DNA of 32,000 nt from Nitrosomonas europaea (GTDB lineage: Bacteria > Pseudomonadota > Gammaproteobacteria > Burkholderiales > Nitrosomonadaceae). Positions 9,538-28,462 of this stretch are shown piece by piece. Position 1 is the stretch's first letter, and each line of letters opens with the position of its first letter. The DNA is taken from contig NZ_FUWK01000002.1 of the NCBI RefSeq assembly GCF_900167395.1, positions 120,001-152,000 on the forward strand. The letters are read 5' to 3'. A model generated the notes under the pieces. It searched no databases and was not told the origin of the DNA. It saw only the letters and a list, made by a program, of their open reading frames with translations. Made by a program: the position numbers and the translations under genes.

Positions 9538-10974
9538 CTATAACGCTGGATTTTTCAACAACGCATCGATCAGTCTTTTTTCGATCGAGCTGTACTGCCG
9601 GGTATCGTCCGTATGCAGTCCTGGTGATCTGCCCCAGGCTGGGTTCTGCCTGAGCATATCGATGATCTGCTGCCAGCCGTCCGGCAGCTCACCACGCTCC
9701 GGCTGCTGACTTACCTGATCGGTATGACAGGCAGCGTGCCCCCGGTTCATCAGTTTATCCAGCAGTTGGCGCTGGCGCAGATACAGCAACTGCAAGGTGC
9801 TGTCATCTACACATAACCACCGGGTACCCCGGATTTTCGCCTGAATCTCCTTGCCGTAACGTCTGAATGTAGACCAGCCGGTTCCGGCAAGTGCGCCCAG
9901 CATGCTGGCAACCCCAAGACTCAATCCTCCTGTCATCAGATCGATTCCTGCTCCAGCAGCAGCCCCCTTGAGTGCCGCACTGCCGATATCCAGACCATAG
10001 GCTTTCAGTACACCGGGTGCAAACAGATCAAGCTGCCAGTAGCCATTCTGTACCGGGATCTTTTGCAGTTCGATATCCTTATCCGTGAAATTGAACATCT
10101 TCAGCAAATCAACCAGACAGTGCTGCTCTGCCTGACGGATGAAATCCTGCAATCTGATCGCTGCAGATGAAGTATCACCAGCCGAACTGCGTTCATCACC
10201 CGTATGCTCCCGGTAACACGCCGTAGTAATGATCAAGCCGGCAATCCGCCTGGCGGCAGACATGCAAAGCTGATTCCAGACTCTGGCACGGTGGTCGATC
10301 AGACGTTGCAGGCGGGTATAGTGCACTTCCAGCAGGCTTTGTATTTTCTGGTACAGGCGCTTTTCCGCTTCAAAGGCAAATGCCACGGTATCCAGTTCAA
10401 GCGAGGCGTATATGTTGAACGCCGCCAGCTTTTTTCTCCACAGATCGAGCTCGGCCCGATGCGCCGCAGTAAAATTGAATATCGGGATCATCGGCTTCAT
10501 TGCCTTGCCGAGTATCTCGATTTCGATGAGATATTTTTCCAGCACCGGCTCACGCACGTCGATCACATATAACAGCACATCACTACGCAACACCTGCCGG
10601 ATAACCTTGGCTTCCTGTTCCAGCGGATCGTTGAGAGGCGTCGCAGCAACAAATTTTTCCAGCAGTTCACTTTGCGTGCTGCGCTTGTTTCTGGTCGCAA
10701 TCAGATGGAGTTTGTCCTGCAGTGCATAGACATCTTCGATTCCGGGTGTATCGTGCAAATTGAGCACCGCTTCACTTCCGGCAAAAATGGTAGCCCGTTC
10801 GACATGACGGGTCGTCCCCGCTGCATCATCCACTCTGCCAAAGCTGGTACTGCGCAGCAAAGTACGAATCAGCGAGGTTTTTCCGGTATTGGTATGGCCA
10901 ACGACAGCAATCTCCAGCAGCGGTGCTTCCTGCATCGAGACTGTCCCGACAGATTTCATATCAGTATGCATCAT
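9538..10974 (-). CDS. GTPase with a C-terminal membrane-associated domain (DUF3482-type)
   Basis: G1 is GHTNTGKTS and G3 is DTPG. I saw no canonical NKxD. A glycine-zipper-like stretch (GSAALKGAAAGAGIDLMTGGLSLGVASMLGALAGTG) is present. Its start overlaps the upstream stop as TGATG. Confidence 0.7.
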   Translation of the reverse strand: MMHTDMKSVGTVSMQEAPLLEIAVVGHTNTGKTSLIRTLLRSTSFGRVDDAAGTTRHVERATIFAGSEAVLNLHDTPGIEDVYALQDKLHLIATRNKRSTQSELLEKFVAATPLNDPLEQEAKVIRQVLRSDVLLYVIDVREPVLEKYLIEIEILGKAMKPMIPIFNFTAAHRAELDLWRKKLAAFNIYASLELDTVAFAFEAEKRLYQKIQSLLEVHYTRLQRLIDHRARVWNQLCMSAARRIAGLIITTACYREHTGDERSSAGDTSSAAIRLQDFIRQAEQHCLVDLLKMFNFTDKDIELQKIPVQNGYWQLDLFAPGVLKAYGLDIGSAALKGAAAGAGIDLMTGGLSLGVASMLGALAGTGWSTFRRYGKEIQAKIRGTRWLCVDDSTLQLLYLRQRQLLDKLMNRGHAACHTDQVSQQPERGELPDGWQQIIDMLRQNPAWGRSPGLHTDDTRQYSSIEKRLIDALLKNPAL

Positions 10975-12368
10975 CAGGAAAGGATATGTTCGGCTGGAAT
11001 CGCACAGGTTTGTGCCAGCCGGTACCAGGCCTGTCTGCGTGATTCCGCCACCGGAATTGCAGGGCTGCTTTGCAACAATATCAACCAGATCTGACCGGAT
11101 ACCAGTGTTGCAAGCTCTCTTACCATCCGCTGCACTCCACGATCAGGCAACCGATGTGCCGCCACGCCAATGACTAACGCTCCTTTGGATTTTTTGAGCA
11201 TTTCCGAGACCCGGGCAAATGTTTTCTGATCCGCCACATTTTCCTGGCAAACCAATCCTTCCGGCCAGATGGCATGGCTGTCCAGTTCGACACCGATCAC
11301 CAATGCATTTTCGGGAAAACGACGACTGTGTTTCGCACGGGTAATCGGTTCCAGCGATTCTTTTGCCATTCCGGGATCGCGGTCGATCACACTGGTCACG
11401 AATTCTTTTGCGATCAGGCTCTGCCGCAGGGTGACGTAGTAAGGCAGGTATAAATCCAGTTTGTAGCGATACTCGGACAGCTTCAACATGAAAAAGGCAA
11501 GCAGCATCAGGATCAGCCGGGGCAGCAATCCATATACGATCAGTGCTCCCACCAGAAATTCCGCCCAGGCGCTTCTGATGACTGAATCCTGCACACCTGC
11601 CCCGATCCGGCTGGCTGCGATCTGCTGGCCGTCAGGAACAGCGAGGCCAATATGCTGCATGGGAACACCCAACAGACGAGTCAGCTCTGGCAGGCTGTTT
11701 TCCGGCAGCAATGTCGTCCCCCAGACGAAATCGTACTGTTTTGCCAGCATCAGCAGAATCAGCACGCCCATCCCTGCAAGCAGATAAACCAGCCAGAACT
11801 GATGAGTCAACATGCTGATTCGCCACCGGCCCACCCTGCCGGACAGGCAGGTTTCCCACCAGGCACGTGCAGCAAACGTACCAGTGGAGTCACTCTCTCT
11901 TTTCTTGAGCTGAAAAGGCAGCCAGCAGGCCAGTTGCGCAGCAATGCCCGAGCTCAATCCCTGAACACTCAGCAAAATCCCGGCACACCACAGCAACATC
12001 GACAGGAAATTGAACCCAAGCAACACGACCAGCAACCAGTAAATATTCAGCGTCGAAGATTCGCTGGCTGCATTGACCGCGGCCAACCCTCCGAGAACCG
12101 CCGCCAGCAGCAGAATGATTCTGCTTGCACGTATGAACAGCTTCTCCGGCTGCTGGAGCACCTCGTCCAGATGATTGTCATGAACCAGATGATGAGCGCG
12201 ATCCAGTAATCTTTCCAGAAAAGCAGCGTAACTGAAACCGGAAGCAGGGTACGCTTCCATACTCGCAATACCGGCGTAAGAAAGTGCCTGAGGCTGGCCT
12301 GTTTCAATATGCCGCAATTGTTCCAGTCGAACCAGATCATTGAAATCGTGGTTTTTTAATGCCATCAC
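10974..12368 (-). CDS. multi-pass membrane protein (DUF2868-type), partner of the downstream GTPase
   Basis: 464 aa with several hydrophobic helices in the middle third. It shares a 1-nt stop/start overlap with the GTPase gene. The family name is from recall of this conserved gene pair. Confidence 0.5.
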   Translation of the reverse strand: MMALKNHDFNDLVRLEQLRHIETGQPQALSYAGIASMEAYPASGFSYAAFLERLLDRAHHLVHDNHLDEVLQQPEKLFIRASRIILLLAAVLGGLAAVNAASESSTLNIYWLLVVLLGFNFLSMLLWCAGILLSVQGLSSGIAAQLACWLPFQLKKRESDSTGTFAARAWWETCLSGRVGRWRISMLTHQFWLVYLLAGMGVLILLMLAKQYDFVWGTTLLPENSLPELTRLLGVPMQHIGLAVPDGQQIAASRIGAGVQDSVIRSAWAEFLVGALIVYGLLPRLILMLLAFFMLKLSEYRYKLDLYLPYYVTLRQSLIAKEFVTSVIDRDPGMAKESLEPITRAKHSRRFPENALVIGVELDSHAIWPEGLVCQENVADQKTFARVSEMLKKSKGALVIGVAAHRLPDRGVQRMVRELATLVSGQIWLILLQSSPAIPVAESRRQAWYRLAQTCAIPAEHILS

Positions 12369-14532: not shown

Positions 14533-16107
14533 ATGAAACACCGTACATGGATATGGCTTTATCTGATTACTCTCCCATCGCTGACAAACATGGTTCATGC
14601 AAAAGAAACGCTTCCAGACAACCAGAATGGCCAGACAACAGCAGTCGATTCCGGTTCTGCAGCATCCAAGGAAGTAATTATACAAACTGCGGCCAACCAG
14701 CAAACTGAATCGACCAAACCAACATTCATCGCTGGTAATGCACCCTCCAGTTTCTACCAGCGCGCGCGCAGTTACAGCACCCACCCGGAATCCGATCCGC
14801 CCCGTTATGTTCGCACGCTGTCCAAAACGGGGATCGACGCTTTCAAAAATCTTTACTGGCTGGATGTCGGGTTGGATTACCGCGTACGTTATGAACATCG
14901 CCACAATGATATCCGGCGCTCACGTATCACCACGGATGACCCTGTTCTCCTGCGAACACGGGCTTATCTGGGTATCAAAGAAATCCTGGATCCTCTGCGC
15001 TTCGTCGTCGAATTTGAAGATGCACGCCGCTATAACGGTAAATTCCCTAAAGATAACCGCGACTGGAATGAATTCGAACTGATCCAGACCTATGGCGAAC
15101 TCTATTTCAAAGATGCGCTGGGGCGAGATGACCTGGGTAATTATCGTCCTGTCAGAATCCGGGGTGGTCGCATGGCATGGGAAACGCTGGATCGGCGCTT
15201 ACTGGGTAGTAATCAATGGCGCAACACTACCAATAATTTTGAAGGCTTCCGCGTTACACTCGGCCAGGAATCGAATGACTGGGAGTTCGATGCATGGGGA
15301 GTGCAACCGGTCATAAGACTGATAGACAAATTTGACCGGCGCGACAAAGGCCAGTGGTTTTATGGCGCAATCGGACATTTTCGTCAATGGTCAAAAATAA
15401 TCACCATTCAACCCTACTATATGGGGTTAATACAGGATGACGATGGTGGAACACGAGTCAAACGTGAAATCCACTCTCCTGCCATACGAGCCTATGGTGT
15501 TGTGCCCAACACTGAAGTCGATTTCGATCTCGGTGCCATTTATCAATTTGGCCGTGACGGTGGACAGAAAAAATCAGCACATGCCTATCTGCTCGAATTC
15601 GGCTATACCTTCCAGCAGGCTGCCTGGAAGCCCCGCGTCAGTGCCTTTTACGGTTATGTAAGTGGTGATCGTGATCCTAACGATCGCACAAACAACCGTT
15701 TTGAAAGATTCTTCGGTTTTGCACGCCCCTGGTCAGCTGATGACTACATCATTATGGAAAACATCCAGGCACCGAAAATCAAGGTAGAGTTCCAGCCACA
15801 TCCCGACTTACAAATCGACGGAGGCTATAACGGCTTCTGGCTCGCCAGTAAGACTGACCGTTTCAACAACCTTCTCAACGGCAGTGGAAATAACCGTGAT
15901 CGCAGCGGGAACAGTGGCAGCTTTATCGGGCATTCAGCCGATATTCGCGCCCGTTACAAGCTGACACCTCATATCAGTACCACACTAGGCTATTCACACT
16001 GGTTCAACGGCGGATTCATAAAAAACCAGCAGTTGGCGGAACTGGGAGAAACCACTGCCGGGACGGATTTTTTCTATGTTGAAGTCGCTATCAGCGCATT
16101 CAAATAA
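14533..16107 (+). CDS. outer-membrane beta-barrel protein, alginate-export (AlgE-like) family candidate
   Basis: A signal peptide ends in ...MVHA/KE, a low-complexity linker follows, and then alternating aromatic/polar beta-strand patterns. The C-terminus is ...VEVAISAFK. It is rich in Arg. A GAGG lies 6 nt upstream. The sbp start lies 28 nt after its stop. Confidence 0.55.
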
Positions 16108-16135
16108 CATCAACTTATCTATAAAAGGGAATCAA

Positions 16136-17143
16136 ATGAAATTCAATATATGGTTGTCAGTCGGATTACTGACGTTTGCTCTGGCAGGTGCCAGTCAGGC
16201 ATTTGCTGACCGGACTCTTCTCAATGTTTCCTACGATCCGACACGCGAGTTGTATGAGGAATATAACCGCGAGTTCATCCGCTACTGGCAGGAAAAAACC
16301 GGGGAGAAAATTACTGTCAAACAGTCACATGGCGGCTCCGGCAAACAGGCACGTGCGGTCATTGACGGTGTGCCTGCAGATATAGTGACACTTGCCCTTG
16401 CTCATGACATTGACGCGATCAGCGAGCAATCGGGGCTGATCCCGGCAGAATGGCAGAAACGCTTACCCAACAACAGTTCGCCCTATCTCTCAACGATCGT
16501 CCTGCTGGTACGCAAAGACAATCCCAAAGGAATCAGGGACTGGGATGATCTGATCAAACCGGGTGTCGCCGTCATAACGCCCAATCCGAAAACATCGGGT
16601 GGTGCACGCTGGAATTATCTGGCGGCGTGGGGTTTTGCACTGAAAAAATACGATGGCGATGAAGCAAAAGCACAAGAGTTCCTCACCCGACTTTATAAGA
16701 ATGTCTCAATACTTGATTCAGGGGCACGTGGATCAACCATCAATTTCATCCAGCGCGGCATAGGGGATGTTCTGATTTCCTGGGAAAACGAAGCTTTTCT
16801 GGCGCTCAAGGAATATGGCCCGGAGAAATTCGAAATAATCATTCCCTCGATCAGCATTCTTGCCGAACCCCCTGTCGCTGTCGTCGACAAGAATGTCGAC
16901 AAACATGGCGTACGTAATATTGCCCAGGCCTACCTCGAGTACCTGTACGACAAAAAAGGGCAGGAAATTGCGGCACGCAACTTCTATCGACCGAGCGATC
17001 CGGAAATCGCCAAAAAATATGCTCATCAGTTCCCGGCAATCAATCTGTTTACGATCAATGAAGTATTTGGCGGCTGGCCGCAAGCCCAGAGCATCCACTT
17101 CAAGGACGGCGGCCTGTTCGACAAAATCTATGTAAATCAATGA
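16136..17143 (+). CDS. sbp: periplasmic sulfate/thiosulfate-binding protein
   Basis: The signal peptide is [53 protein letters not shown] and [17 protein letters not shown] are Sbp/CysP hallmarks. The ATG at 16136 follows AAGGGA. Confidence 0.92.
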
Positions 17144-17507: not shown

Positions 17508-17618
17508 GTAATGAACAAGTCCAGTGAAGCAAGAAGTGCGCAGATCCCGTTGAAATGGATGAACGATTTACCCGCTTCTCTTGCTTCAATTCAGATAGCT
17601 TCTTTGCTGGAGTTACAA

Positions 17619-18530
17619 ATGCTGCCATCAACGTTAAAAACACTGGTACACGGTGATTATATGATTCGTACGATAGAACGCATTATCACAAGCACCGGTT
17701 TTTCCTTACAACACTCTGATAATGGCGAGATTACTGGCCTTTTTTACCATTGCAAGTTATCAAGCGCTTATCAACCTGTTTTTGAAGCTGCCCGGAACAA
17801 TATCATTGGACAAGAAGCTCGTATCCGCGCTGATTTAAATGGAAATGGAGAAATACAACTTTCTCCCTGGCATATATTCGCACTCGCCCCCGACGATGAA
17901 CAGCTCATCAAGCTGGATCGCCTCTGCCGAACGATTCATGCCCTCAATTTTCTTGACAATATTACTAACAAACAGATGAAGCTGTTCGTCAGCGTACAGC
18001 CCCGTTTGCTGGAAAGTGTCAAGGATGATCATGGCAGCGCATTTGAGCAAATACTCGACATTATCGGAATACGTACCTCCAGAATCGTTATCGAGATCCC
18101 AGTTGAAGCCAATCGTGACTGGCGGCTGCTGAAACGCGTGATCATGAACTATCGTGCACACGGGTATCTGATCTCAGTCAATTACAGCGGTACCAATAAT
18201 GACCGGATATCCGAACTTGGCAAGCTATATCCTAATGTCATACGTATTGATGCACGTGATCTGTTACGGCGTAGCGTACTGGATCCGTTGATAGTCACTG
18301 CTCATAATCAAGGAGCAGATGTTCTGGTAGGCAACATAGAAACTTCATATCAACTGACAGATGCAATACACGCAGGTGCAGATCTGCTACAGGGAAATTT
18401 CCTGGCCAGATATTCGCGTAAAGCCGACAACATGCTGACTCCCTTTTCCTGGCAGATACCAGACGAGCGGAATGGATACAGATTCGATAATGAATCACTG
18501 CAGGAAAATCAACCTTACAGAAGCATATAA
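17619..18530 (+). CDS. EAL-like domain protein with degenerate catalytic motifs (paralogue 1)
   Basis: The EAL-fold blocks are recognisable: YQPVF, EARIR, VSVQP, VIEIPVE, VNYSGTN, IRIDA, GNIET and LQGNFL. I chose the start at 17619 (GGAG 6 nt upstream) because MLPSTLKTLV aligns with MNRTTAKPFTV of paralogue 2. Alternative starts are 17511, 17559 and 17661. Confidence 0.6.
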   Translation: MLPSTLKTLVHGDYMIRTIERIITSTGFSLQHSDNGEITGLFYHCKLSSAYQPVFEAARNNIIGQEARIRADLNGNGEIQLSPWHIFALAPDDEQLIKLDRLCRTIHALNFLDNITNKQMKLFVSVQPRLLESVKDDHGSAFEQILDIIGIRTSRIVIEIPVEANRDWRLLKRVIMNYRAHGYLISVNYSGTNNDRISELGKLYPNVIRIDARDLLRRSVLDPLIVTAHNQGADVLVGNIETSYQLTDAIHAGADLLQGNFLARYSRKADNMLTPFSWQIPDERNGYRFDNESLQENQPYRSI

Positions 18531-18620
18531 CCCGTTCTATTTACGAGACATCGAATCATGTACCCGAAAACAGCCTTGCATATAAAAACAGCGACAAACC
18601 ATCTTGAAAGGAGCGCTTTC

Positions 18621-19409
18621 ATGAATAGAACCACTGCCAAGCCTTTTACCGTAATGGATGAGTTCGAATTGATCAAAGCTGCTACCGACTACTCGCTGGA
18701 ACAGGATGAAAATGGCCGGATCAGTGGAAATTTCTACCATTGCAAACTGACCAGTGCCTTTCAGGTAATCCTCGATATTCATGAAAATAACATAATTGGG
18801 CACGCAGCCTACATTCGCTCTGAATCAAATGGTGAAGTCTCGCTCTGGCCCTGGCAGGTATTTGCACTTGCTTCCAAAGATGAACAATTGATCGACCTCG
18901 ACCGCCTGTGCAGAGCAATTCACGCCCTGAATTATTTTAAGAAGAACTTTGACACCAACACTGGTCAGCTTTTCCTGAGTGTACATCCACGCCTGCTGAG
19001 CAGCATCCAGAATGAACACGGACGAACATTCAAAGATTTTCTGGATTTAACCGGAATCAGTACTTCACGGATCGTGATTGAAATACCGCCAGCCCTGAAT
19101 CACGACTGGAAACTGCTGCAGAAACTGATCATTAACTACCGCTCATACGGTTATCAAATAGCCCTTAATTTCAGCAGTACCAACGGACACTGGTTACTGG
19201 GAACAGATGATCTCCATCCGGACATCCTGATCGTGCAAGCACACGAATTATTACACTATCAGCTGAATGACTATCCGGAAGACAACAGCACCCGTGATGC
19301 CGGCTTCCGCCTGCATGTCAGAAAAATCGAAACGCAAGAGCAGCTGACAGCGGCAAAGCAAGCGGGCGCACATTACCTGCAGGGTAACTTTCTAGGAAAA
19401 ACAGTATGA
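18621..19409 (+). CDS. EAL-like domain protein with degenerate catalytic motifs (paralogue 2)
   Basis: AAGGAG lies 7 nt upstream of the ATG at 18621. The protein is colinear with paralogue 1: FYHCKL, NNIIG, ALA..DEQLI.LDRLCR.IHALN and TSRIVIEIP. The EAL glutamate is replaced (AAYIR) and the DDFGTG block reads LNFSSTN. Confidence 0.6.
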   Translation: MNRTTAKPFTVMDEFELIKAATDYSLEQDENGRISGNFYHCKLTSAFQVILDIHENNIIGHAAYIRSESNGEVSLWPWQVFALASKDEQLIDLDRLCRAIHALNYFKKNFDTNTGQLFLSVHPRLLSSIQNEHGRTFKDFLDLTGISTSRIVIEIPPALNHDWKLLQKLIINYRSYGYQIALNFSSTNGHWLLGTDDLHPDILIVQAHELLHYQLNDYPEDNSTRDAGFRLHVRKIETQEQLTAAKQAGAHYLQGNFLGKTV

Positions 19410-19474: not shown

Positions 19475-20308
19475 TTGAGCACTTTCAAACAATACAGTGT
19501 ACTACCAGGCTTCAATCTGGCACTGGGATTTACCCTGCTTTACCTGAGTCTGGTCGTACTGATTCCTCTGTCGGCAGCATTCATCCACAGCGCGAAACTG
19601 ACCTGGCCGGAATTTTGGAGTACGGTGACTGCACCCCGAGTCGTCGCGTCCTATCGGCTGACATTTGGAGCCTCGTTTGCAGCCGCAGTGGTTAATACAT
19701 TTTTCGGATTGCTGGTAGCCTGGGTACTAGTACGTTACCCGTTTCCGGGTAAGCGCCTGGTCGATGCCCTGATCGATCTGCCTTTCGCACTACCCACCTC
19801 CGTTGCCGGTATCACGCTCACCGCAATCTATGCGGGTAACGGCTGGCTCGGTCAGTATCTGGAACCATTGGGAATCAAGGTCGCCTTCACCCCGGTCGGT
19901 GTTTTCGTGGCACTGACATTCATCGGGTTGCCGTTCGTCGTTCGCACCGTTCAACCTGTACTGGAAGATATCGAGAAAGAACTGGAAGAAGCTGCTGCCA
20001 TGCTGGGCGCAACACGCTGGCAGACTTTCCGGTACGTTATTTTCCCGGCAGTTCTACCTGCACTGACCACCGGTTTTGCACTGGCTTTTGCCCGCGCCAT
20101 CGGAGAATACGGCTCCGTTATTTTTATTGCCGGCAATATCCCGATGGTCTCGGAGATCACGCCATTACTCATCATCACCAAACTCGAACAATATGATTAC
20201 GCTGGTGCAACGGCCATTGCCGTCGTGATGCTGGTGATTTCATTCATTCTTCTGCTGATCATCAACCTGCTGCAGTGGTGGGTTCGTCATCGCAGCATAA
20301 AGGCATAA
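19475..20308 (+). CDS. cysT: sulfate/thiosulfate ABC transporter permease
   Basis: The TTG start lies 8 nt after AGGAG. It has 6 transmembrane segments. The EAA loop is [21 protein letters not shown]. Confidence 0.9.
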
Positions 20309-20317
20309 AGGAAAATC

Positions 20318-21196
20318 ATGACTGCCGTCCCGTTACTCCAAACCTCTCCGGCACCGCACAAGGTGGTTACGCAGGAATCACCGTGGGCGCGCTGGACACT
20401 CATCCTGCTGGCCCTCTCCTTCCTGTCGCTTTTTCTTTTACTGCCCCTGGTAGCAGTTTTCTTTGAGGCACTGAGAAAAGGATGGGAAGTTTATCTTGCA
20501 GCCATCACTGAACCCGATGCCCTCGCCGCCATCCGCCTGACCCTGATTGCAGCCGCCATCGCCGTACCGCTCAACCTGATATTCGGTATCGCAGCCGCCT
20601 GGGCAATTGCCAAATTTGAGTTCCGCGGCAAAAGTATCCTCACCTCCCTGATCGATCTGCCATTCTCCGTCTCTCCCGTCGTCGCCGGATTGATTTACGT
20701 ACTGATATTCGGCCTGCAGGGCTGGATCGGTCCATGGCTGCGGGAGCATGATCTTTCCATCATTTTTGCCGTGCCCGGCATCGTTCTGGCAACGATTTTC
20801 GTGACTGTGCCGTTCATTGCACGTGAGCTGATTCCACTGATGCAGGCACAGGGAAGCGAGGAGGAAGAAGCCGCCATCATTCTGGGCGCAAGTGGCTGGC
20901 AGACACTGTGGTACGTCACGCTTCCCAACATCAAATGGGGATTGCTGTATGGCACCATTCTCTGCAATGCCCGAGCAATGGGCGAGTTTGGCGCCGTCTC
21001 GGTCGTTTCCGGACATATTCGCGGCCTGACCAACACTCTTTCCCTGCACGTCGAAATTCTCTACAACGAATACAACTTTGTTGCTGCTTTTGCAGTGGCT
21101 TCCTTGCTGGCATTACTTGCACTGATTACGCTGGTACTGAAAACGCTGGTTGAAGCAAAAGTGGCACAACAAACCTCCAGAGGAAATCATTCATGA
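20318..21196 (+). CDS. cysW: sulfate/thiosulfate ABC transporter permease
   Basis: The EAA loop is [22 protein letters not shown]. It is paralogous to cysT. Its stop overlaps the cysA start as ATGA. Confidence 0.9.
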
Positions 21197-22281
21197 CTAT
21201 CGAAATACACGATCTCTCCAAGCAATTCGGCTCTTTCACCGCACTGAACGACATCAATCTGAAAGTCAACCCGGGAGAGCTGCTCGCGCTGCTGGGTCCT
21301 TCCGGCTCCGGTAAAACCACTCTGCTGCGGGTCATTGCCGGCCTTGAAACAGCTGATTCCGGTCAAGTGCTGTTCAACGAGGAAGATTCAACCGACAAAC
21401 ACATTCGTGATCGGCATGTCGGATTTGTCTTCCAGCATTACGCACTTTTTCGCAATATGACCATTTTCGAGAACGTAGCATTCGGCTTGCGTGTACGCCC
21501 TAGAAAACAGCGCCCCAACGCTCCGGAAATCAATCACCGCGTGACTGAACTGCTGCAACTGGTGCAACTCGACTGGCTGGCAGATCGTTATCCGCACCAG
21601 CTTTCCGGGGGGCAACGCCAGCGCATCGCATTGGCACGGGCACTGGCAGTCGAACCCAGTGTTCTGTTACTGGATGAGCCATTCGGTGCGCTCGATGCCA
21701 AAGTGCGCAAGGAGCTGCGTGCCTGGCTGCGCAAACTGCACGATGACATGCACATTACCAGTGTCTTCGTGACACATGATCAGGAAGAAGCACTGGAAGT
21801 GGCAGATCGGATCGTCGTCATGAACCGGGGCCGTATCGAACAAATCGGCACTCCCGATGAAGTCTATGAGAAACCGGCCAACCCGTTCGTATATGAATTT
21901 CTTGGACACGTCAATCTGTTCCACGGGCGTGTGCATCAGGGCCATGCATGGATTGGCGATCTCGAAGTCGATGCCCCGGAGTACTCAGAAGCAGAAGATC
22001 TCAGTGCCATCGCCTATGTGCGGCCGCATGACATCGAAGTGGACCGGACATTAAACGGTGAACCGGCTCTGGCTGCTCATATCGTCCATATTCTCGCTAT
22101 CGGACCGGTCGTACGGCTGGAGCTGGCAGGCAAAGACAATCAAAGTACAAACAGTATTTATGCCGAGATCAGCAAGGAGCGTTTTCGTGAGTTGCAACTG
22201 GCAAGAGGAGATCAGGTTTTCATCAAGCCGCGCAAGCTCGATCTGTTTCCAAACCATGCCCAAAACGGATCGATACATTGA
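21193..22281 (+). CDS. cysA: sulfate/thiosulfate ABC transporter ATP-binding protein
   Basis: Walker A is GPSGSGKTT, the signature motif is LSGGQRQR and Walker B is LLLDEPF. A C-terminal TOBE-like regulatory domain is present. Confidence 0.95.
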
Positions 22282-23219
22282 TGACAGCCTCTGAAAAAAC
22301 GGTTTTGCCGGAATTATCCTATCTGCGCACGACAATCAGCAACGTTGTCATTGAGTTGCGTAATTTACGCGAGACTTCACTGGAGCATCGGCAGAGACTC
22401 AACAATCCGCCCAAACTTCCCTCACGCAAAACGCTGGCGGACATCATCGACAAATTGAGTGCCGCATTGTTTCCCAACCGCCTGGGTCAACCCGACCTGA
22501 CCGGAGAAAGTATCGATTACTTCGTAGGGTACACACTGGATACCGCCCTGCGCGATCTGTCGGCAGAGGTAATCCGGGAGCTCCATTTTGCTTCCGGGCT
22601 CGAGGCCGTCAGCCATACGGTTCGAGAGCGGGCGGTGGAAATCACGCATGTATTTGCCGGGCAGTTGCCTGCCATACGCCATATTCTGGACAGTGACATT
22701 CGTGCAGCCTATGAAGGCGATCCGGCTGCACACAATATCGACGAGGTACTGGTCTGCTACCCAGGGATCACCGCCATCATCCATTACCGGCTGGCACATG
22801 AACTGCACAAGCTGGGAGTCCCTCTGATTGCACGCATGATTTCAGAAATCGCGCATTCTCTGACCGGCATAGAAATACATCCCGGAGCCCGGATTGGTGA
22901 CAGTTTCTTCATAGATCACGGAACCGGAGTCGTCATCGGGGAAACGGCCATCATCGGTCGTAAAGTACGCCTGTATCAGGCAGTCACTCTAGGCGCCAAA
23001 CATTTCCCGGTAGATGAACAAGGTGCCTTGATCAAGGGAAATCAGCGTCATCCTGTCGTCGAAGACGATGTCGTGATCTACGCGGGAGCGACCATCCTCG
23101 GGCGTATCACTATCGGACATGGCTCCACGATAGGCGGAAATGTCTGGCTGACACACGACATCCCCCCCGGGAGTCATATCACCCAGGCGCAGATGCGCCA
23201 TGAAAAAGTACCCGGTTAA
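22281..23219 (+). CDS. cysE: serine O-acetyltransferase, long form with a ~130-aa N-terminal helical extension
   Basis: The left-handed beta-helix hexapeptide region is GARIGDSFFIDHGTGVVIGETAIIGRKVRLYQAVTLG...VVIYAGATILGRITIGHGSTIGGNVWL. The ATG at 22281 overlaps the cysA stop as TGATG. The ORF-track start at 22278 is a TTG. Confidence 0.85.
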   Translation: MTASEKTVLPELSYLRTTISNVVIELRNLRETSLEHRQRLNNPPKLPSRKTLADIIDKLSAALFPNRLGQPDLTGESIDYFVGYTLDTALRDLSAEVIRELHFASGLEAVSHTVRERAVEITHVFAGQLPAIRHILDSDIRAAYEGDPAAHNIDEVLVCYPGITAIIHYRLAHELHKLGVPLIARMISEIAHSLTGIEIHPGARIGDSFFIDHGTGVVIGETAIIGRKVRLYQAVTLGAKHFPVDEQGALIKGNQRHPVVEDDVVIYAGATILGRITIGHGSTIGGNVWLTHDIPPGSHITQAQMRHEKVPG

Positions 23220-23327
23220 TTTCAATTGCATATCTTTATTTCGTATATGCGAATAACGCCGGATTATTCAGAATAGTTCGGTGACACAAAACGCTGTTTC
23301 TTCCCAACAATCTTCAGGAGAATTTAA

Positions 23328-24245
23328 ATGACTGATATTCATCAGGCACAGACCGCATTAGGTGATGTTGCGGCCCGTACACTTGCCAACGCGACTAAAA
23401 CCATTCCCATGATGGGCACGATCACGCCACGGTGGCTAACTCATCTGCTGCAGTGGGTTCCGGTCGAGGCGGGTATCTACCGCGTCAATAAAGTCAAAGA
23501 TCCTGACGAGGTTGAAGTCGACTGCTCCAACAAGGATGAGCGCGAATTACCTGCCACTTACGTAGATTATGAGGAATGGGGGCGTGAGTATGTACTCAGT
23601 GCAGTCAATACCGTGCTGGATGTCCACACTCGCGTCGCCGATCTTTACAGCAGCCCGCACGATCAGACCCGCGAGCAACTCCGGCTGATCATTGAAACCA
23701 TCAAGGAACGCCAGGAAAAAGAACTGGTGAACAACAAGGAATACGGTTTGCTCAACAATGTTGCCAGAAACATGAAGATCAAAGCGCGTACAGGCGCACC
23801 CACCCCGGATGATCTGGATGATCTGATCTCACTCGTCTGGAAGGAACCGGCCTTCTTTCTGGCACATCCCAAAGCCATTGCGGCATTTGGTCGGGAGTGC
23901 ACACGGCGTGGCGTACCTCCTCCCACCGTATCGATGTTCGGCTCACAATTCCTTACCTGGCGCGGGCTACCCCTCATTCCATGCGACAAGATAGGCATTA
24001 CCGGAGGGAAAACAAGTATCCTGCTGCTACGCACGGGTGAAAGCCGGCAAGGGGTGGTAGGACTCTATCAGCCGGGACTGCAAGGCGAACAGGGCATGGG
24101 ATTATCTTTACGTTTCATGGGGATCAACCATAAGGCCATCGCTTCTTATCTGGTTTCACTGTATTGCTCACTGGCCGTGTTGACTGAAGATGCACTCGGT
24201 GTTCTGGAAAATGTCGAAGTGGGTAAATACCATGAATACAAATGA
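23328..24245 (+). CDS. Family 2A-type encapsulin shell protein (HK97-fold nanocompartment, SrpI-like)
   Basis: 305 aa, with AGGAG 8 nt upstream. The blocks ITPRWL, VEAGIYRVNKV, SAVNTVLDVHTRV, REQLRL, WKEPAFFLAHPKAIAAFGRECTRRGVPPP, GESRQGVVGLYQPGL, GMGLSLRFMGIN and ASYLVSLYCSLAVLTEDAL match my recollection of SrpI-type Family 2A shells. There is no cNMP-binding insertion. The downstream cargo-type desulfurase also supports the call. Confidence 0.8.
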   Translation: MTDIHQAQTALGDVAARTLANATKTIPMMGTITPRWLTHLLQWVPVEAGIYRVNKVKDPDEVEVDCSNKDERELPATYVDYEEWGREYVLSAVNTVLDVHTRVADLYSSPHDQTREQLRLIIETIKERQEKELVNNKEYGLLNNVARNMKIKARTGAPTPDDLDDLISLVWKEPAFFLAHPKAIAAFGRECTRRGVPPPTVSMFGSQFLTWRGLPLIPCDKIGITGGKTSILLLRTGESRQGVVGLYQPGLQGEQGMGLSLRFMGINHKAIASYLVSLYCSLAVLTEDALGVLENVEVGKYHEYK

Positions 24246-25857
24246 GTTCAACCAGTGGATAGATAAAGTATCGGGTGAGGCATCCGCTTATGTACCCGAT
24301 ATTGAGTCACTGACGCAAATGGGCAATGCGTTATTCAACACTCCTCCGCTTTCCCGATCGACCGAACCGCCTGCTTTGACGGTTCCCGGTGCTGAAGTCA
24401 GTCATTCACGCCCGGCCACCGGGTCGAGCTACCCTTCGACCATTCCACTGCCTTGCGAAGCGGAACTGAAAGCCCTGTTCACACCGAATCAGTATCGTGC
24501 GCCGGCTCATATCAGCCTGTCTGATTCAGATCATTCCGGTCATCCACCGTGGGAATCATCATTTTATTTCCTCGATGAAGGGATAGCACCCGAGCGCCAT
24601 GACCGGGCAGCACAAATTCCTGCTGCCCATCCCCCCTTCGATATCCATGCGATCCGGCGTGATTTCCCCATTTTACAGGAACACGTCAATGGGCATTCCC
24701 TGGTCTGGCTGGACAATGCGGCAACGACACAGAAACCTCAGGCCGTCATCGATCGGCTGACCTATTTCTACACGCACGAAAATTCCAATATTCACCGGGC
24801 AGCACATGAACTGGCAGCCCGTGCGACAGATGCGTATGAGGAATCGAGGAATAAGGTTCGCCAGTTTCTCAACGCCGCATCCACCGATGAAATCATCTTT
24901 CTGCGGGGAACGACGGAAGCGATCAACCTCGTTGCCCAAAGCTGGGGGCGGCAGCATATCAGCGCCGGAGACGAGATCATCATTACCTGGCTGGAACATC
25001 ATGCCAATATCGTTCCATGGCAGATGCTGTGTAATGAAACGGGCGCCCGATTGCGCGTGGTACCGGTCGATGAGGATGGACAGGTTTTGCTGGAAGAATA
25101 TCAAAAGCTGCTCAACTCACACACCAGACTCGTTGCATTCTCACAGGTTTCAAATGCACTCGGGACCATCACACCTGCCAGACAAATGGTGGAAATGGCA
25201 CACCGCGTCGGTGCACGTGTACTGGTCGATGGAGCACAATCGGTTTCACACATGCGGGTCGACGTCCAGCAACTCGATTGTGACTGGTTCGTTTTTTCCG
25301 GGCATAAGGTATTCGGCCCGACCGGTATTGGTGTTCTATATGGCAAGACAGAACTGCTCAACGACACACAGCCATGGCAGGGTGGCGGCAATATGATTCA
25401 AGATGTCACTTTCGAAAAGACAGCTTATCACGGTGCCCCTGCCCGGTTCGAGGCGGGGACCGGTAATATTGCCGATGCAGTAGGACTGGGCGCCGCAATC
25501 GACTATGTGGAACGTATCGGTCTTGAAAATATCAGCCGCTACGAGCACGAATTGATGACCTATGCTACCGGGTGCCTAAAATCGATAGCAGGACTGCGAC
25601 TCATTGGTACCGCACCAGATAAAGCAGGTGTACTGTCTTTTACCCTGAAGGATTTCTCTACGGAAGAAGTCGGTACTGCTCTCAATCGTGAAGGTATTGC
25701 GGTACGTGCCGGTCATCATTGTGCCCAGCCTATTCTGCGCCGCTTCGGCGTGGAAAGTACCGTCCGCCCCTCGCTGGCTTTTTATAACACGTATACGGAT
25801 ATCGACAGGCTGGCCGCTGCCATAGACCGTATCCGGGGAAAGAAAAACGCATTCTGA
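24232..25857 (+). CDS. group II (SufS/CsdA-type) cysteine desulfurase with a ~135-aa disordered N-terminal extension (putative encapsulin cargo)
   Basis: The core starts near 24637 (FDIHAIRRDFPIL...LDNAATTQKP). The PLP lysine lies in SGHK (Lys codon 25306..25308) and the catalytic Cys in RAGHHCAQP (codon 25720..25722). The first in-frame ATG after the ORF-track start that gives a sensible N-terminus is 24232, which overlaps the shell gene by 14 nt. Confidence 0.88.
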   Translation: MNTNEFNQWIDKVSGEASAYVPDIESLTQMGNALFNTPPLSRSTEPPALTVPGAEVSHSRPATGSSYPSTIPLPCEAELKALFTPNQYRAPAHISLSDSDHSGHPPWESSFYFLDEGIAPERHDRAAQIPAAHPPFDIHAIRRDFPILQEHVNGHSLVWLDNAATTQKPQAVIDRLTYFYTHENSNIHRAAHELAARATDAYEESRNKVRQFLNAASTDEIIFLRGTTEAINLVAQSWGRQHISAGDEIIITWLEHHANIVPWQMLCNETGARLRVVPVDEDGQVLLEEYQKLLNSHTRLVAFSQVSNALGTITPARQMVEMAHRVGARVLVDGAQSVSHMRVDVQQLDCDWFVFSGHKVFGPTGIGVLYGKTELLNDTQPWQGGGNMIQDVTFEKTAYHGAPARFEAGTGNIADAVGLGAAIDYVERIGLENISRYEHELMTYATGCLKSIAGLRLIGTAPDKAGVLSFTLKDFSTEEVGTALNREGIAVRAGHHCAQPILRRFGVESTVRPSLAFYNTYTDIDRLAAAIDRIRGKKNAF

Positions 25858-25866
25858 ACACCATGC

Positions 25867-25900
25867 GGTACAGATAACAGGCCTGCATAATTTCTGTACC
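25867..25900. other. 8-bp inverted repeat between the desulfurase stop and the cysB start
   Basis: ggtacaga (25867..25874) pairs with tctgtacc (25893..25900), with an 18-nt loop. No U-tract follows. It could be a weak terminator or a protein-binding palindrome. Confidence 0.2.
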
Positions 25901-25951
25901 ACATCCATTCCTCCACGCCACCACACACGTATCGACAACAGGTATAAACAC

Positions 25952-26869
25952 GTGAATTTTCAGCAACTCCGCATCATCAGTGAAACAATTCGGCAGAATT
26001 ACAATTTGACGGAAGTGGCCAATGCCCTGTTTACCTCGCAATCCGGGGTCAGCAAGCATATCAAAGATCTGGAAGATGAACTGAACATCGATCTGTTCAT
26101 CCGAAAGGGCAAACGCCTGACCGGACTGACCGCACCGGGCAAGGAACTGGTCAAAATCGTTGACCGCATTCTGCTGGATACCAGAAATATCAAACGACTG
26201 GCAGAACAGTTCAGTCAGCATGACCAGGGTGAACTGACCGTGGCTACCACCCACACCCAGGCACAATACGCCTTACCGGATGTTGTTAGGCAATTCAAGG
26301 AAATATTCCCAAAAGTACATCTCGTACTTCACGAATCCAGTCCCGGCGAGATCGTATCCATGCTGCTGAATGGCCAGGCGGATATTGGCATCGCAACCGA
26401 AGCGCTGGAGAGTACTTCTGAACTGGTATCGTTTCCGTACTATACCTGGCATCATGCGATCATCGTACCGGCAGAACATCCGCTGCAATCGATACACCCT
26501 CTCACACTCGAAGCTGTTGCGCAATTTCCGATCATTACCTATCACAAGGGTTTTACCGGGCGTTCCCGAATCGATCAGGCGTTCTCTCGCGCGGAATTGA
26601 CACCCAATATCGCCATGTCCGCTCTCGATGCAGATGTCATCAAAACCTATGTCACTCTGGGTATGGGAATTGGTATCGTTGCATCTGTCGCATTTACACC
26701 GGAACGGGATACAAAACTGATCAAACTGGATGGTTCTCATCTGTTCGAGCAGAATACCACCTGCATATCCATACGACGTAACCACTATCTGCGCGGATAC
26801 GCCTACCGGTTCATCGAGCTGTGCATCCCTTCACTGAGCAGAGATACCATCTGCTCAGAAATACAATAG
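25952..26869 (+). CDS. cysB: LysR-family transcriptional regulator of the cysteine regulon (CysB/Cbl type)
   Basis: The GTG start aligns residue-for-residue with the E. coli CysB N-terminus (MNFQQLRII vs MKLQQLRYI). TSQSGVSKHIKDLEDEL, ATTHTQAQYALP, ADIGIATEAL, TGRSRIDQAF and DADVIKTYVTLGMGIGIVAS are all present. Confidence 0.9.
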   Translation: MNFQQLRIISETIRQNYNLTEVANALFTSQSGVSKHIKDLEDELNIDLFIRKGKRLTGLTAPGKELVKIVDRILLDTRNIKRLAEQFSQHDQGELTVATTHTQAQYALPDVVRQFKEIFPKVHLVLHESSPGEIVSMLLNGQADIGIATEALESTSELVSFPYYTWHHAIIVPAEHPLQSIHPLTLEAVAQFPIITYHKGFTGRSRIDQAFSRAELTPNIAMSALDADVIKTYVTLGMGIGIVASVAFTPERDTKLIKLDGSHLFEQNTTCISIRRNHYLRGYAYRFIELCIPSLSRDTICSEIQ

Positions 26870-26881
26870 AACGACTACTGA
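26783..26881. repeat. direct repeat copy 1 (the functional 3' end of cysB and 12 nt beyond its stop)
   Basis: I aligned this by hand to 27971..28068. There is a perfect 37-bp core (26809..26845 = 27998..28034), about 6 substitutions and 3 small indels overall. It contains a 9-bp-stem hairpin, ctgagcaga (26834..26842) and tctgctcag (26850..26858). Confidence 0.85.
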
Positions 26882-27178
26882 TGCGAGATTGGCATGAGTC
26901 CATATTCCAGCGTTTCAAATGACTGATTGGTGCCGTCGTATAGCGTAAACTCTTACAGTTCGGCGCGTTCAGAACTTCATGGATGGTTGTCCGGCTGACA
27001 CAGAAGCGTTCCGCCAGCTGTGTTATTTTCCAGAGTCAAATTTAATAAAGATGCAAAATTTCCTGATGATCCGGTAAAGTCAGGCATGTGCATCTATGTA
27101 CGTTCATCTGCAGTATTTTTCTGAATACTGTAAATAACACTAGAAATTCTTATATATAAAAGAAGAAGGGGAAATTGC

Positions 27179-27940
27179 GTGTTTAAAAGAGTCGGTATTT
27201 TTGTTGCGCTCGTTACATTGAGTTTGATATTTAATCAACCCGCCACGGCTGGCAGAACCGTAGAGGATTTTCAGGTTTGGGGAAATATTACTGCACTTGG
27301 TAATTTTGGCTTCGTCAATCCGGGCAACCCCGATTTGAAGAAATTCAGATGGTGGATGGAAGGACAGGGACGATTCGGTAATGATTCCTCACAGTTTACG
27401 CAGGCTATCATCCGCCCGGGTTTGGGCTATGCGATCACTGATAAAATCATCATCTGGGCGGGCTATGCCTGGATTCCCTCGGATGAACCGCTGGTACCAA
27501 AGTCAGGGCTCCCGTTCGATGAGCATAGAATCTGGCAGCAGGTAACCTGGGCGGATGAATTTTCTTTCGGTAAATTGTCATTGCGCAGTCGCTTTGAGCA
27601 GCGCTTCTTTGATCACAATGCACCTGTTTCTGGTAGTGACGATGTGGCTTACCGTTTCCGTCAGCTGGTAAAACTGGCGATTCCAGTCGCCATGATCGAT
27701 CCCAATCTTACTTTTATCATTCAGAACGAATTGTTCATCGGGTTGAACACGGTTAGTAACCCGGGCTTTATTTCTCGCGGCTTCGATCAGAATCGCGCTT
27801 TTGTGGGTCTGGGTTACAAAGTTCATCAGAATGCGACCGTTGAACTGGGTTATATGAACCAATTCATTGACAGGCGCCATAATCCTCGTCCTGATCAAAT
27901 GATGCACAATTTTGCAGTTAACCTGTTTCTGAATTTCTAA
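27179..27940 (+). CDS. outer-membrane beta-barrel protein, DUF2490-type candidate
   Basis: The GTG start follows AAGGGGA. The signal peptide ends in ...NQPATA/G. Alternating beta-strand patterns are present, and the C-terminus ...AVNLFLNF ends in Phe as in typical outer-membrane proteins. Confidence 0.5.
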   Translation: MFKRVGIFVALVTLSLIFNQPATAGRTVEDFQVWGNITALGNFGFVNPGNPDLKKFRWWMEGQGRFGNDSSQFTQAIIRPGLGYAITDKIIIWAGYAWIPSDEPLVPKSGLPFDEHRIWQQVTWADEFSFGKLSLRSRFEQRFFDHNAPVSGSDDVAYRFRQLVKLAIPVAMIDPNLTFIIQNELFIGLNTVSNPGFISRGFDQNRAFVGLGYKVHQNATVELGYMNQFIDRRHNPRPDQMMHNFAVNLFLNF

Positions 27941-27970: not shown

Positions 27971-28068
27971 CACTATTATTTGCGCGGATGCCTGCCAGTT
28001 CATCGAGCTGTGCATCCCTTCACTGAGCAGAGATCATCTGCTCAGAAATACAGCAGAACGATTACTGA
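27971..28068 (+). pseudogene. decayed duplicate of the cysB 3' end (direct repeat copy 2)
   Basis: This is the same ~98-bp sequence as 26783..26881. It carries a 3-nt insertion, two 2-nt deletions (the first shifts the frame relative to cysB) and loss of the stop (caatag becomes cagcag). The hairpin arms are intact and only the loop is shortened. Confidence 0.7.
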
Positions 28069-28412
28069 AACCAGCTGGTCTTTTCCGGATTCTCGTTCGG
28101 AGTACGATTATCTGCATTGTCCGAGGTACGGTTATCTGTATCAGAAGGCCAGGAAGAAAATGGAAACGGGCGTTGTTCGCTGTTGAATGTCAGGAACAGA
28201 CTGATCTGGTAATCATACATTGCCAGCTGGCGGCCCAGTTTGAGCAGTCGGGTATTGGCCTGCCCGGTCAGGACAGTCGATCCGAGCTGAAACAGGGCCA
28301 GCAGCACGATCAGAAATTTCACACTCCCCTGGATAAACATGAACAGCAACATAAAAAGTACACGAATCCAGGTTTCAGTACTCTGCAATCGTTGTTTTAC
28401 TTCGTCATTCAT
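28062..28412 (-). CDS. small membrane protein, DUF4389-type
   Basis: TWIRVLFMLLFMFI...LFQLGSTVLTGQANTRLLKLGRQLAMYDYQISLFLTFNSEQRPFPF matches my recollection of DUF4389. I chose the ATG at 28412, because the 28427 start in the ORF track is a TTG. Confidence 0.55.
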   Translation of the reverse strand: MNDEVKQRLQSTETWIRVLFMLLFMFIQGSVKFLIVLLALFQLGSTVLTGQANTRLLKLGRQLAMYDYQISLFLTFNSEQRPFPFSSWPSDTDNRTSDNADNRTPNENPEKTSWFQ

Positions 28413-28462
28413 AAAGTGATGTCTCAAACGGGTTGATGAATTCGGCTATATATTTACTACTT

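Follow-up and report, generated by a model that had tools for sequence, protein, structure and literature searches.

The window analyzed in this study is a stretch of 32,000 nucleotides (nt) of Nitrosomonas europaea (assembly GCF_900167395.1, contig NZ_FUWK01000002.1, positions 120,001-152,000 of the forward strand); the genomes closest to the locus described here are those of Nitrosomonas. On its + strand, a serine O-acetyltransferase gene (22278-23219) is followed by an open reading frame (ORF) of 305 amino acids (aa; 23328-24245) and by a long ORF that reaches to 25857. Our subject is the N-terminal extension of the protein encoded by the long ORF, a cysteine desulfurase, for which a first-pass annotation had proposed a role in loading the enzyme into a protein shell. 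As that annotation had it, 135 residues stand ahead of FDIHAIRRDFPIL, the first conserved SufS block, when the ORF is read from the ATG at 24232 as a protein of 541 aa. The features on which the argument rests are listed below in window coordinates.

23328-24245, + strand: shell gene, assigned to the Family 2A (SrpI-like) encapsulins, 305 aa, by Pfam, NCBIfam and solved structures
24232-24245, + strand: overlap of the desulfurase start with the shell end, 14 nt (last codons and stop)
24232-24636, + strand: N-terminal extension, residues 1-135, read as a putative cargo-loading domain from composition, predicted disorder and orthologues
24295-24348, + strand: M1, residues 22-39, VPDIESLTQMGNALFNTP; consensus LPDVxxLTRLANELFSALP; predicted amphipathic helix 24-35
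24442-24486, + strand: M2, residues 71-85, IPLPCEAELKALFTP; consensus (G/I)LP(G/F)EAELxxL(L/F); predicted helix 76-82
24553-24579, + strand: M3, residues 108-116, ESSFYFLDE; consensus SSFYFLD(E); no predicted secondary structure
24622-24636, + strand: junction AAHPP, residues 131-135, a conserved (S/A)AHP(P/A) block at which the confidently predicted fold starts
24637-25857, + strand: core of a SufS-type (group II) pyridoxal phosphate (PLP) cysteine desulfurase and stop codon; Aminotran_5, E = 9.6e-149

Shell and desulfurase genes

The 305-aa ORF matched the SrpI-like family of Pfam with E = 2.6e-106 and the NCBIfam model encap_f2a with 528 bits (cutoff 380) over its full length, while the 2B model aligned to it only through its C-terminal positions 210-449. 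Among solved structures, SrpI of Synechococcus elongatus (6x8m, E = 5e-150) and the Acinetobacter shell (8t6r, E = 2.8e-148) were recovered, and a tblastn comparison with the S. elongatus srpI gene gave 72.8% identity. The protein lacks the cyclic nucleotide monophosphate (cNMP)-binding insertion domain, which places it in Family 2A and not in Family 2B. It has also kept F263 and Y274, the counterparts of F262 and Y273 in SrpI. On the basis of these matches, we assign the gene at 23328-24245 to the Family 2A encapsulin shells. A Family 1 shell was not found among the window ORFs scanned.

The core of the adjacent enzyme is that of a SufS-type desulfurase. Pfam Aminotran_5 spans residues 158-527, TIGR01979 scored 571 bits (cutoff 475), and the PLP lysine K359 (SGHK) and the catalytic C497 (HHCAQP) are both invariant in an independent alignment of 75 sequences, made of proteins from another database. 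The closest solved core is 8kg1, a cysteine desulfurase chain of 426 residues that starts at the core (E = 3e-185). Additionally, the NCBIfam model NF041166, named [quoted passage not shown], scored 884.3 bits (cutoff 800), with a best stretch at residues 104-534 that includes M3, and a Nitrosomonas protein of 93% identity is named by NCBI as family 2A cargo. The gene lies directly 3' of the shell gene on the same strand and overlaps it. Judged by model matches and gene position, the enzyme is the cargo cysteine desulfurase (CyD, also Enc-CD) of a Family 2A encapsulin. We also considered a Family 1 cargo with a C-terminal targeting peptide and rejected it, given that the extension is N-terminal and the C-terminus is the ordinary end of a SufS core.

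The N-terminal extension and its start codon

The extension differs strongly from the core in composition. Exactly 18 of its 135 residues are proline (13.3%), the number that the first-pass annotation had estimated, compared to 11 of 406 in the core (2.7%; binomial p = 3e-8), and proline, serine, threonine, alanine and glycine together account for 47%. The same annotation had called the region low-complexity. The biased composition agrees with this description, but the Shannon entropy is equal to that of the core (4.01 bits versus 4.06 in core windows of equal size), and no DNA tandem repeats were found in 24100-24800, which rules out that the extension arose by a recent repeat expansion. It is compositionally biased, not strictly low-complexity. 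On the opposite strand beneath it there is no ORF of at least 60 aa, and neither the Rfam nor the tRNA scan, both run on the entire window, gave a match, indicating that no RNA element lies beneath it.

Ordinary SufS and CsdA enzymes were said to lack such a region, and the alignment to solved chains of this kind (406-420 aa) indeed begins only at residue ~123-141. The extension was predicted to be disordered: AlphaFold2, supplied with the 75-sequence alignment, gave a predicted local distance difference test (pLDDT) score below 50 at residues 1-23, 25-27 and 31-130, that is, over nearly all of residues 1-130, whereas from ~131 onward the core is predicted with confidence. Predicted secondary structure in the extension is limited to three short helices at residues 4-13, 24-35 (in M1) and 76-82 (in M2). 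Its highest pLDDT falls in helix 24-35, and the helical hydrophobic moment peaks at residues 3-14 and 24-37. The junction pattern is present in 45 of 78 sequences and in none of the shuffled controls, with H133 and P134 nearly invariant in the 75-sequence alignment. The fold is thus predicted to start nearer residue 131 than residue 136.

When the extension was used as the only query against 5.8 billion proteins, just 2 matches were returned. This poor yield is explained by linkers that evolve too fast for a word-based search, and we used shell-anchored loci together with a full-length search instead. The shell-anchored set comprises 80 loci around shell homologues, with one genome per species, and 77 of them contain a downstream desulfurase core. 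All 77 of these shell-adjacent desulfurases carry an extension, which answers the question raised in the first-pass annotation of whether orthologues have one. Its length is 63-456 aa with a median of 205, and in 14 of the 77 it is as short as or shorter than the 135 aa of the window.

The start codon needed testing because the public gene calls differ. In-frame ATGs lie at 24190, 24211, 24232 and 24319, and the calls are 555 aa (equivalent of 24190), 541 aa and 512 aa (Met30, MGNALF, 24319). In all 77 loci, no stop codon interrupts the frame between the end of the shell gene and the core. An ATG 13 nt ahead of the end of the shell stop codon, the position of 24232, is present in 66 of them, and in 36 no start codon of whatever kind precedes it in the open frame, so that the equivalents of 24190 and 24211 are excluded.

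The remaining alternative is that translation begins at the internal Met30 (ATG 24319), leaving ~106 residues of the extension and an M1 cut to MGNALFNTPP. This start would avoid the gene overlap, the 512-aa product is the call recorded for exactly the window sequence, and a strong Shine-Dalgarno sequence is not visible ahead of 24232. We nevertheless consider it improbable. The preceding residues VPDIESLTQ, which fall between 24232 and Met30, are the conserved first half of M1 (D in 82% and L in 100% of the instances), most orthologues have no methionine at the equivalent of residue 30, and the NCBI call for the orthologue of 93% identity is the 541-aa form. Even if Met30 were the true start, M2 and M3 would remain and the cargo-loading interpretation would survive. 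Taken together, the comparison of loci and the position of the first half of M1 make ATG 24232 the best-supported start over 24190 and 24319, so that the possibility of an untranslated extension, which the first-pass annotation had allowed for, is not favored. With this start, the 512-aa call would interrupt the first docking motif, and that of 555 aa would add 14 spurious residues.

The cargo ATG is located within the last codons of the shell gene (cATGAAtACaAAtGA), an arrangement that the same 66 loci share. Owing to the overlap with the conserved H-E-Y-K end of the shell, the first four residues of the cargo (M-N/S/T-T-S/N) are dictated by the shell sequence. The overlap probably serves translational coupling of shell and desulfurase.

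Conserved motifs of the extension

Three short islands of the extension had been singled out in the first-pass annotation, and motif models showed that all three are conserved far beyond chance. Motifs were counted over 78 sequences, and 1,560 shuffled extensions served as control. The M1 model, for which 64 instances were collected, scored 24 bits in the window compared to 6.2 for the best shuffle and was found in 76 of the 78 sequences. The corresponding values are 17 versus 7.4 bits and 61 sequences for M2, and 16 versus 5.6 bits and 75 sequences for M3. The 75-sequence alignment gave a consistent picture, with N32 of M1, P74 and L79 of M2, and F111, L114 and D115 of M3 conserved to at least 90% and Y112 and F113 of M3 invariant. 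The ALFN and SSFYF islands are the conserved positions, as had been put forward. In addition, two motifs have published family-wide counterparts: the window M1 core LTQMGNALFN corresponds to LARLANEFFS, and ESSFYFLDEG of M3 corresponds to AASPYYFLDG (PMC8049743).

The arrangement of the motifs is also conserved. M1 occupies the N-terminal end, the last M3 sits beside the core, and the order M1, M2, M3 is found in all but two loci (L045 and L037), which have a duplicated M2-M3 module. M2 is present once in the window and in 0-6 copies in orthologues. Compared to the nearest genome, the ratio of nonsynonymous to synonymous substitution rates (dN/dS) was 0.07 for the motifs and 0.04 for the core, compared to 0.42 for the linkers, values that are rough given that dS is near saturation.

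In the loci searched, the motifs are confined to the desulfurases. When the models were run against every ORF (stop to stop, at least 50 aa) within 4 kb in the 80 loci and in the whole window, nothing significant was found outside desulfurases; the sole significant match beyond the desulfurase set was a desulfurase truncated by the contig end (L028). There is consequently no sign of a second cargo in this search. Two chance resemblances were dismissed: "KLSAALFPNRL", from the acetyltransferase, and "LTEVANALFTS" (3.9 bits), from the CysB-like regulator.

One proposal of the first-pass annotation was not supported as worded. It had suggested a repeated L-F-x-(T)P pattern as the docking motif. 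Both helices of the window do end in ALF(N)TP, but proline follows LF in only 27% of the M2 instances and this ending is not the conserved feature across the family. M1 and M2 share a leading hydrophobic-Pro-x4-L-x2-L segment, although weakly (hhalign P = 0.0026, probability 12%). With a result this weak, M1 and M2 are not established as copies of one motif.

The motif content varies between lineages. In an Azoarcus-like group, M1 and M2 merge into GLPGEAELARLAARFFNEPP. Methylococcaceae have up to six M2 copies (L049, with an extension of 456 aa, L041, L033, L053, L054 and L060) and carry ALPCDGSRLG right after M1. In Methylophilaceae-like loci (L010-L013, L015-L017, L019-L021, L024-L027, L029, L035, L052, L057, L059 and L064), an extra conserved block, SSFEPEAILAxLPGEHPRMAAxLAVGRxA, precedes M1, and M1 is a variant ending in YAEGFP. 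M1 is missing from the 117-aa extension of a Nitrosomonas metagenome-assembled genome (L002), and M3 is missing from those of L077 (63 aa), L078 and L075. The absence of a single motif in some loci is consistent with motif redundancy.

Probable cargo loading, gene neighborhood and known systems

Cargo loading by a disordered domain in which several motifs act jointly has been demonstrated in S. elongatus and Mycobacterium smegmatis (in both by deletion and by fusion to green fluorescent protein) and in Acinetobacter (by cryo-electron microscopy). The S. elongatus enzyme's N-terminal domain is disordered and ~225 aa long; its residues 1-100 were less effective and the YYFLDG segment alone was ineffective, and extra density was seen at the threefold axis of the shell near F262 and Y273 (PMC8049743). 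Loading in M. smegmatis requires the 155-aa domain, of which residues 1-50 or 51-155 each suffice (PMC11659603). A single motif did not suffice for loading in either of the systems in which this was tested, S. elongatus and M. smegmatis (PMC8049743, PMC11659603). The Acinetobacter shell has the desulfurase as its sole cargo and, when loaded, accumulates elemental sulfur (PMC10836720).

Against this background, we consider it very likely that residues 1 to ~130 constitute the intrinsically disordered domain for cargo loading in a Family 2A encapsulin system, encoded by an AT-Enc-CD operon within a sulfate-assimilation cluster. The shell assignment, the match to NF041166 and the motifs that correspond to published ones support the interpretation first proposed. 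The sequence features, the disorder prediction, the conservation and order of the motifs, their selective constraint, the gene context and family membership come from the present analysis, and experiments on homologues suggest docking, multivalency and a role in sulfur storage. The mechanism that we envisage is as follows. The desulfurase would be translated from ATG 24232, at the head of the 14-nt overlap with the shell gene, with its three islands in fixed order and joined by fast-evolving linkers, rich in proline, serine and alanine, that would serve as spacers. During shell assembly, M1, M2 and M3 would dock discontinuously and multivalently on the inner shell surface, at conserved and mostly non-polar patches near the threefold pore, around F263 and Y274, and on the A-domain. 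The SufS-type dimer would thereby be tethered inside the T=1 shell, where it may, as in homologous systems, be stabilized, become more active and deposit elemental sulfur. Multivalent docking appears most likely in view of the experiments on homologues and of the retention of F263 and Y274 in the window shell.

Several points weigh against this interpretation. The 135-aa domain is shorter than the characterized ones (155 to ~225 aa) and than the median of our sample. Its M1 departs from the consensus at three positions, with Gly in place of an Ala that is conserved to 81%, Ala in place of Glu and Met in place of Leu. The 78 sequences scored with the motif models are also those from which the models had been built, a circularity that the shuffles, the 75-sequence alignment and the reference proteins mitigate in part, and the near-saturated dS limits what can be read from the constraint values. 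The loading experiments were all carried out on homologues from other bacteria, from which loading in the window can be suggested by analogy. To our knowledge, in no system has a motif been assigned to its shell site with atomic resolution.

Several interaction partners are common for disordered tails, and the extension might instead be a flexible region with a role apart from encapsulation, such as recruitment of a sulfur acceptor or regulation of activity, its co-occurrence with a shell being incidental. That encapsulation alters the activity of the S. elongatus enzyme (PMC8049743) would fit such a role. We regard this explanation as very improbable, since extension and motifs track shell adjacency in 77 of 77 cases and free-standing SufS enzymes have no extension. 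Furthermore, deletion of the domain in M. smegmatis stopped loading and left the catalytic rate the same (PMC11659603), and genes for the acceptors SufE, SufU or rhodanese were not found among the window ORFs scanned. Two further roles, that of an export signal and that of an envelope-spanning proline-rich spacer of the kind known in TonB-like proteins, can practically be dismissed, as MNTNEFNQWIDKVSGEASAYVPD contains neither a hydrophobic core stretch nor a twin-arginine motif, and shell and PLP enzyme are cytoplasmic in all studied systems. A Sec or Tat signal peptide is likewise ruled out by direct reading of residues 1-40, which are acidic and polar, with no hydrophobic stretch and no RR.

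The cargo-loading domain of the window is an ordinary example of a feature that is already known and routinely annotated. It carries little weight as a discovery, given that the mechanism has been shown in three organisms and that a curated NCBI model names near-identical Nitrosomonas proteins. Mildly new are the corrected start codon, the compact architecture with one copy of each motif, and the variable copy number of M2 and M3 in relatives. M2 occurs in 0-6 copies, M2-M3 units are duplicated in some Methylococcales and M3 is found twice in Acinetobacter baumannii, a pattern from which the loading domain appears to evolve by module duplication. We tentatively raise the possibility, itself rather doubtful, that the domain is a modular array of variable valency, in which the copy number of M2 and M3 could set the number of shell sites engaged per cargo dimer and the loading density. 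The publications describe a small number of partially conserved motifs; no mention of copy-number variation was found in their main texts (the word "repeat" is absent from the main text of PMC10836720), while supplementary figures may describe it. If the modular reading were true, the 130-residue M1-M2-M3 version of the window would be a near-minimal natural tag. The compact domain could in any case be of use as a short tag with which to load foreign proteins into Family 2A shells.

The surrounding genes place the putative sulfur-storage compartment within the sulfate-uptake cluster of an ammonia-oxidizer-like genome. Upstream on the same strand are genes for an Alginate_exp-family porin, a sulfate-binding protein (sbp), two EAL-domain ORFs, cysT, cysW, cysA and the acetyltransferase. 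The neighboring features are as follows.

7533-9518, + strand: 661-aa ORF, no Pfam match at E <= 1e-5
9538-12368, - strand: DUF3482 GTPase (MMR_HSR1) and DUF2868, a conserved gene pair of unknown function
14533-16107, + strand: Alginate_exp-family outer-membrane porin ORF, overlapping the sulfate-binding protein ORF directly downstream (16076-17143)
17511-18530 and 18558-19409, + strand: pair of EAL-domain-only ORFs, between the sulfate-binding protein gene and cysT
19475-22281, + strand: cysT, cysW and cysA of a sulfate ABC transporter, directly upstream of the acetyltransferase (BPD_transp_1 twice; ABC_tran, CysA_C_terminal, TOBE_3)
22278-23219, + strand: serine O-acetyltransferase, EpsC/SrpH-type, the "AT" of the AT-Enc-CD operon (Hexapep; NF041874, 171 bits, cutoff 150)
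25952-26869, + strand: CysB-family LysR regulator, directly downstream of the desulfurase (NF009327, 444 bits, cutoff 402)
27179-27940, + strand: DUF2490 protein, just past the CysB-like regulator
28062-28427, - strand: small hydrophobic ORF of 121 aa, also just past the CysB-like regulator

Acetyltransferase, shell and desulfurase follow each other in the same order as in S. elongatus. A rhodanese gene was not seen near the operon among the scanned ORFs, and we therefore classify the operon as the AT-Enc-CD type of PMC10836720. A promoter and terminator scan of 22000-27200 gave fewer sites than in shuffles and is therefore silent on the transcription unit. The catalytic CysE/EpsC models match the acetyltransferase only from residue 138, and no Pfam domain covers its first ~135 residues; the SrpH homologue of S. 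elongatus is similar in length (319 aa). The mechanical start of the acetyltransferase ORF is a TTG, which yields a 4-nt overlap with the cysA stop. The pair of EAL-domain ORFs sits within an otherwise standard sulfate-uptake cluster, and the Alginate_exp porin may be an anion porin that is part of this cluster.

Disordered loading domains have already been described on other Family 2 cargos. The closest comparison is CyD of S. elongatus PCC 7942 (Synpcc7942_B2661; Nichols et al. 2021, PMC8049743), the shell of which is ~73% identical to that of the window. Both loci have the order serine acetyltransferase (SAT), shell and desulfurase, and both enzymes have a disordered proline-rich N-terminal domain (15% proline compared to 13% in the window) with an M3, which in S. 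elongatus reads SGFYFIDEQ (11.5 bits). The S. elongatus domain is longer, however (~225 versus 135 aa), and its M1 is represented by two diverged copies, ERSLxQLxQxVLQD. The desulfurase gene starts 234 nt past srpI instead of overlapping the shell gene by 14 nt, and rhodanese and cysK genes are adjacent there but not in the window. The A. baumannii system (Benisch et al. 2024, PMC10836720) likewise includes an SAT gene in the operon and a domain with abundant proline, glycine and serine and with a few short conserved motifs, and its M1, IARLANEFFSAVP (16.5 bits), is nearly the family consensus. It differs in the length of the domain (~225-247 aa), in its two M3 copies (L082) and in a four-gene operon that includes rhodanese. 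The M. smegmatis Enc-CD and its Mmp1 shell (Tang et al. 2024, PMC11659603) resemble the window in domain length (155 versus 135 aa) and in the joint action of several motifs, whereas the host is actinobacterial and the motifs 1-21, 35-55 and 107-121 were defined on mycobacterial sequences only.

More distant parallels are found outside Family 2. The targeting peptides of Family 1 cargos are also cargo-encoded tags that dock on the inner shell surface, but each is a single C-terminal peptide of ~10-15 residues that binds one P-domain site, in contrast to the 130-residue N-terminal multi-motif domain of the window. CsoS2 of alpha-carboxysomes contacts the shell interior through disordered segments with repeated short motifs and linkers, an analogy drawn in PMC10836720. 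It is, however, a separate scaffold protein that is unrelated in sequence, whereas the domain described here would be a tag fused to the cargo itself.

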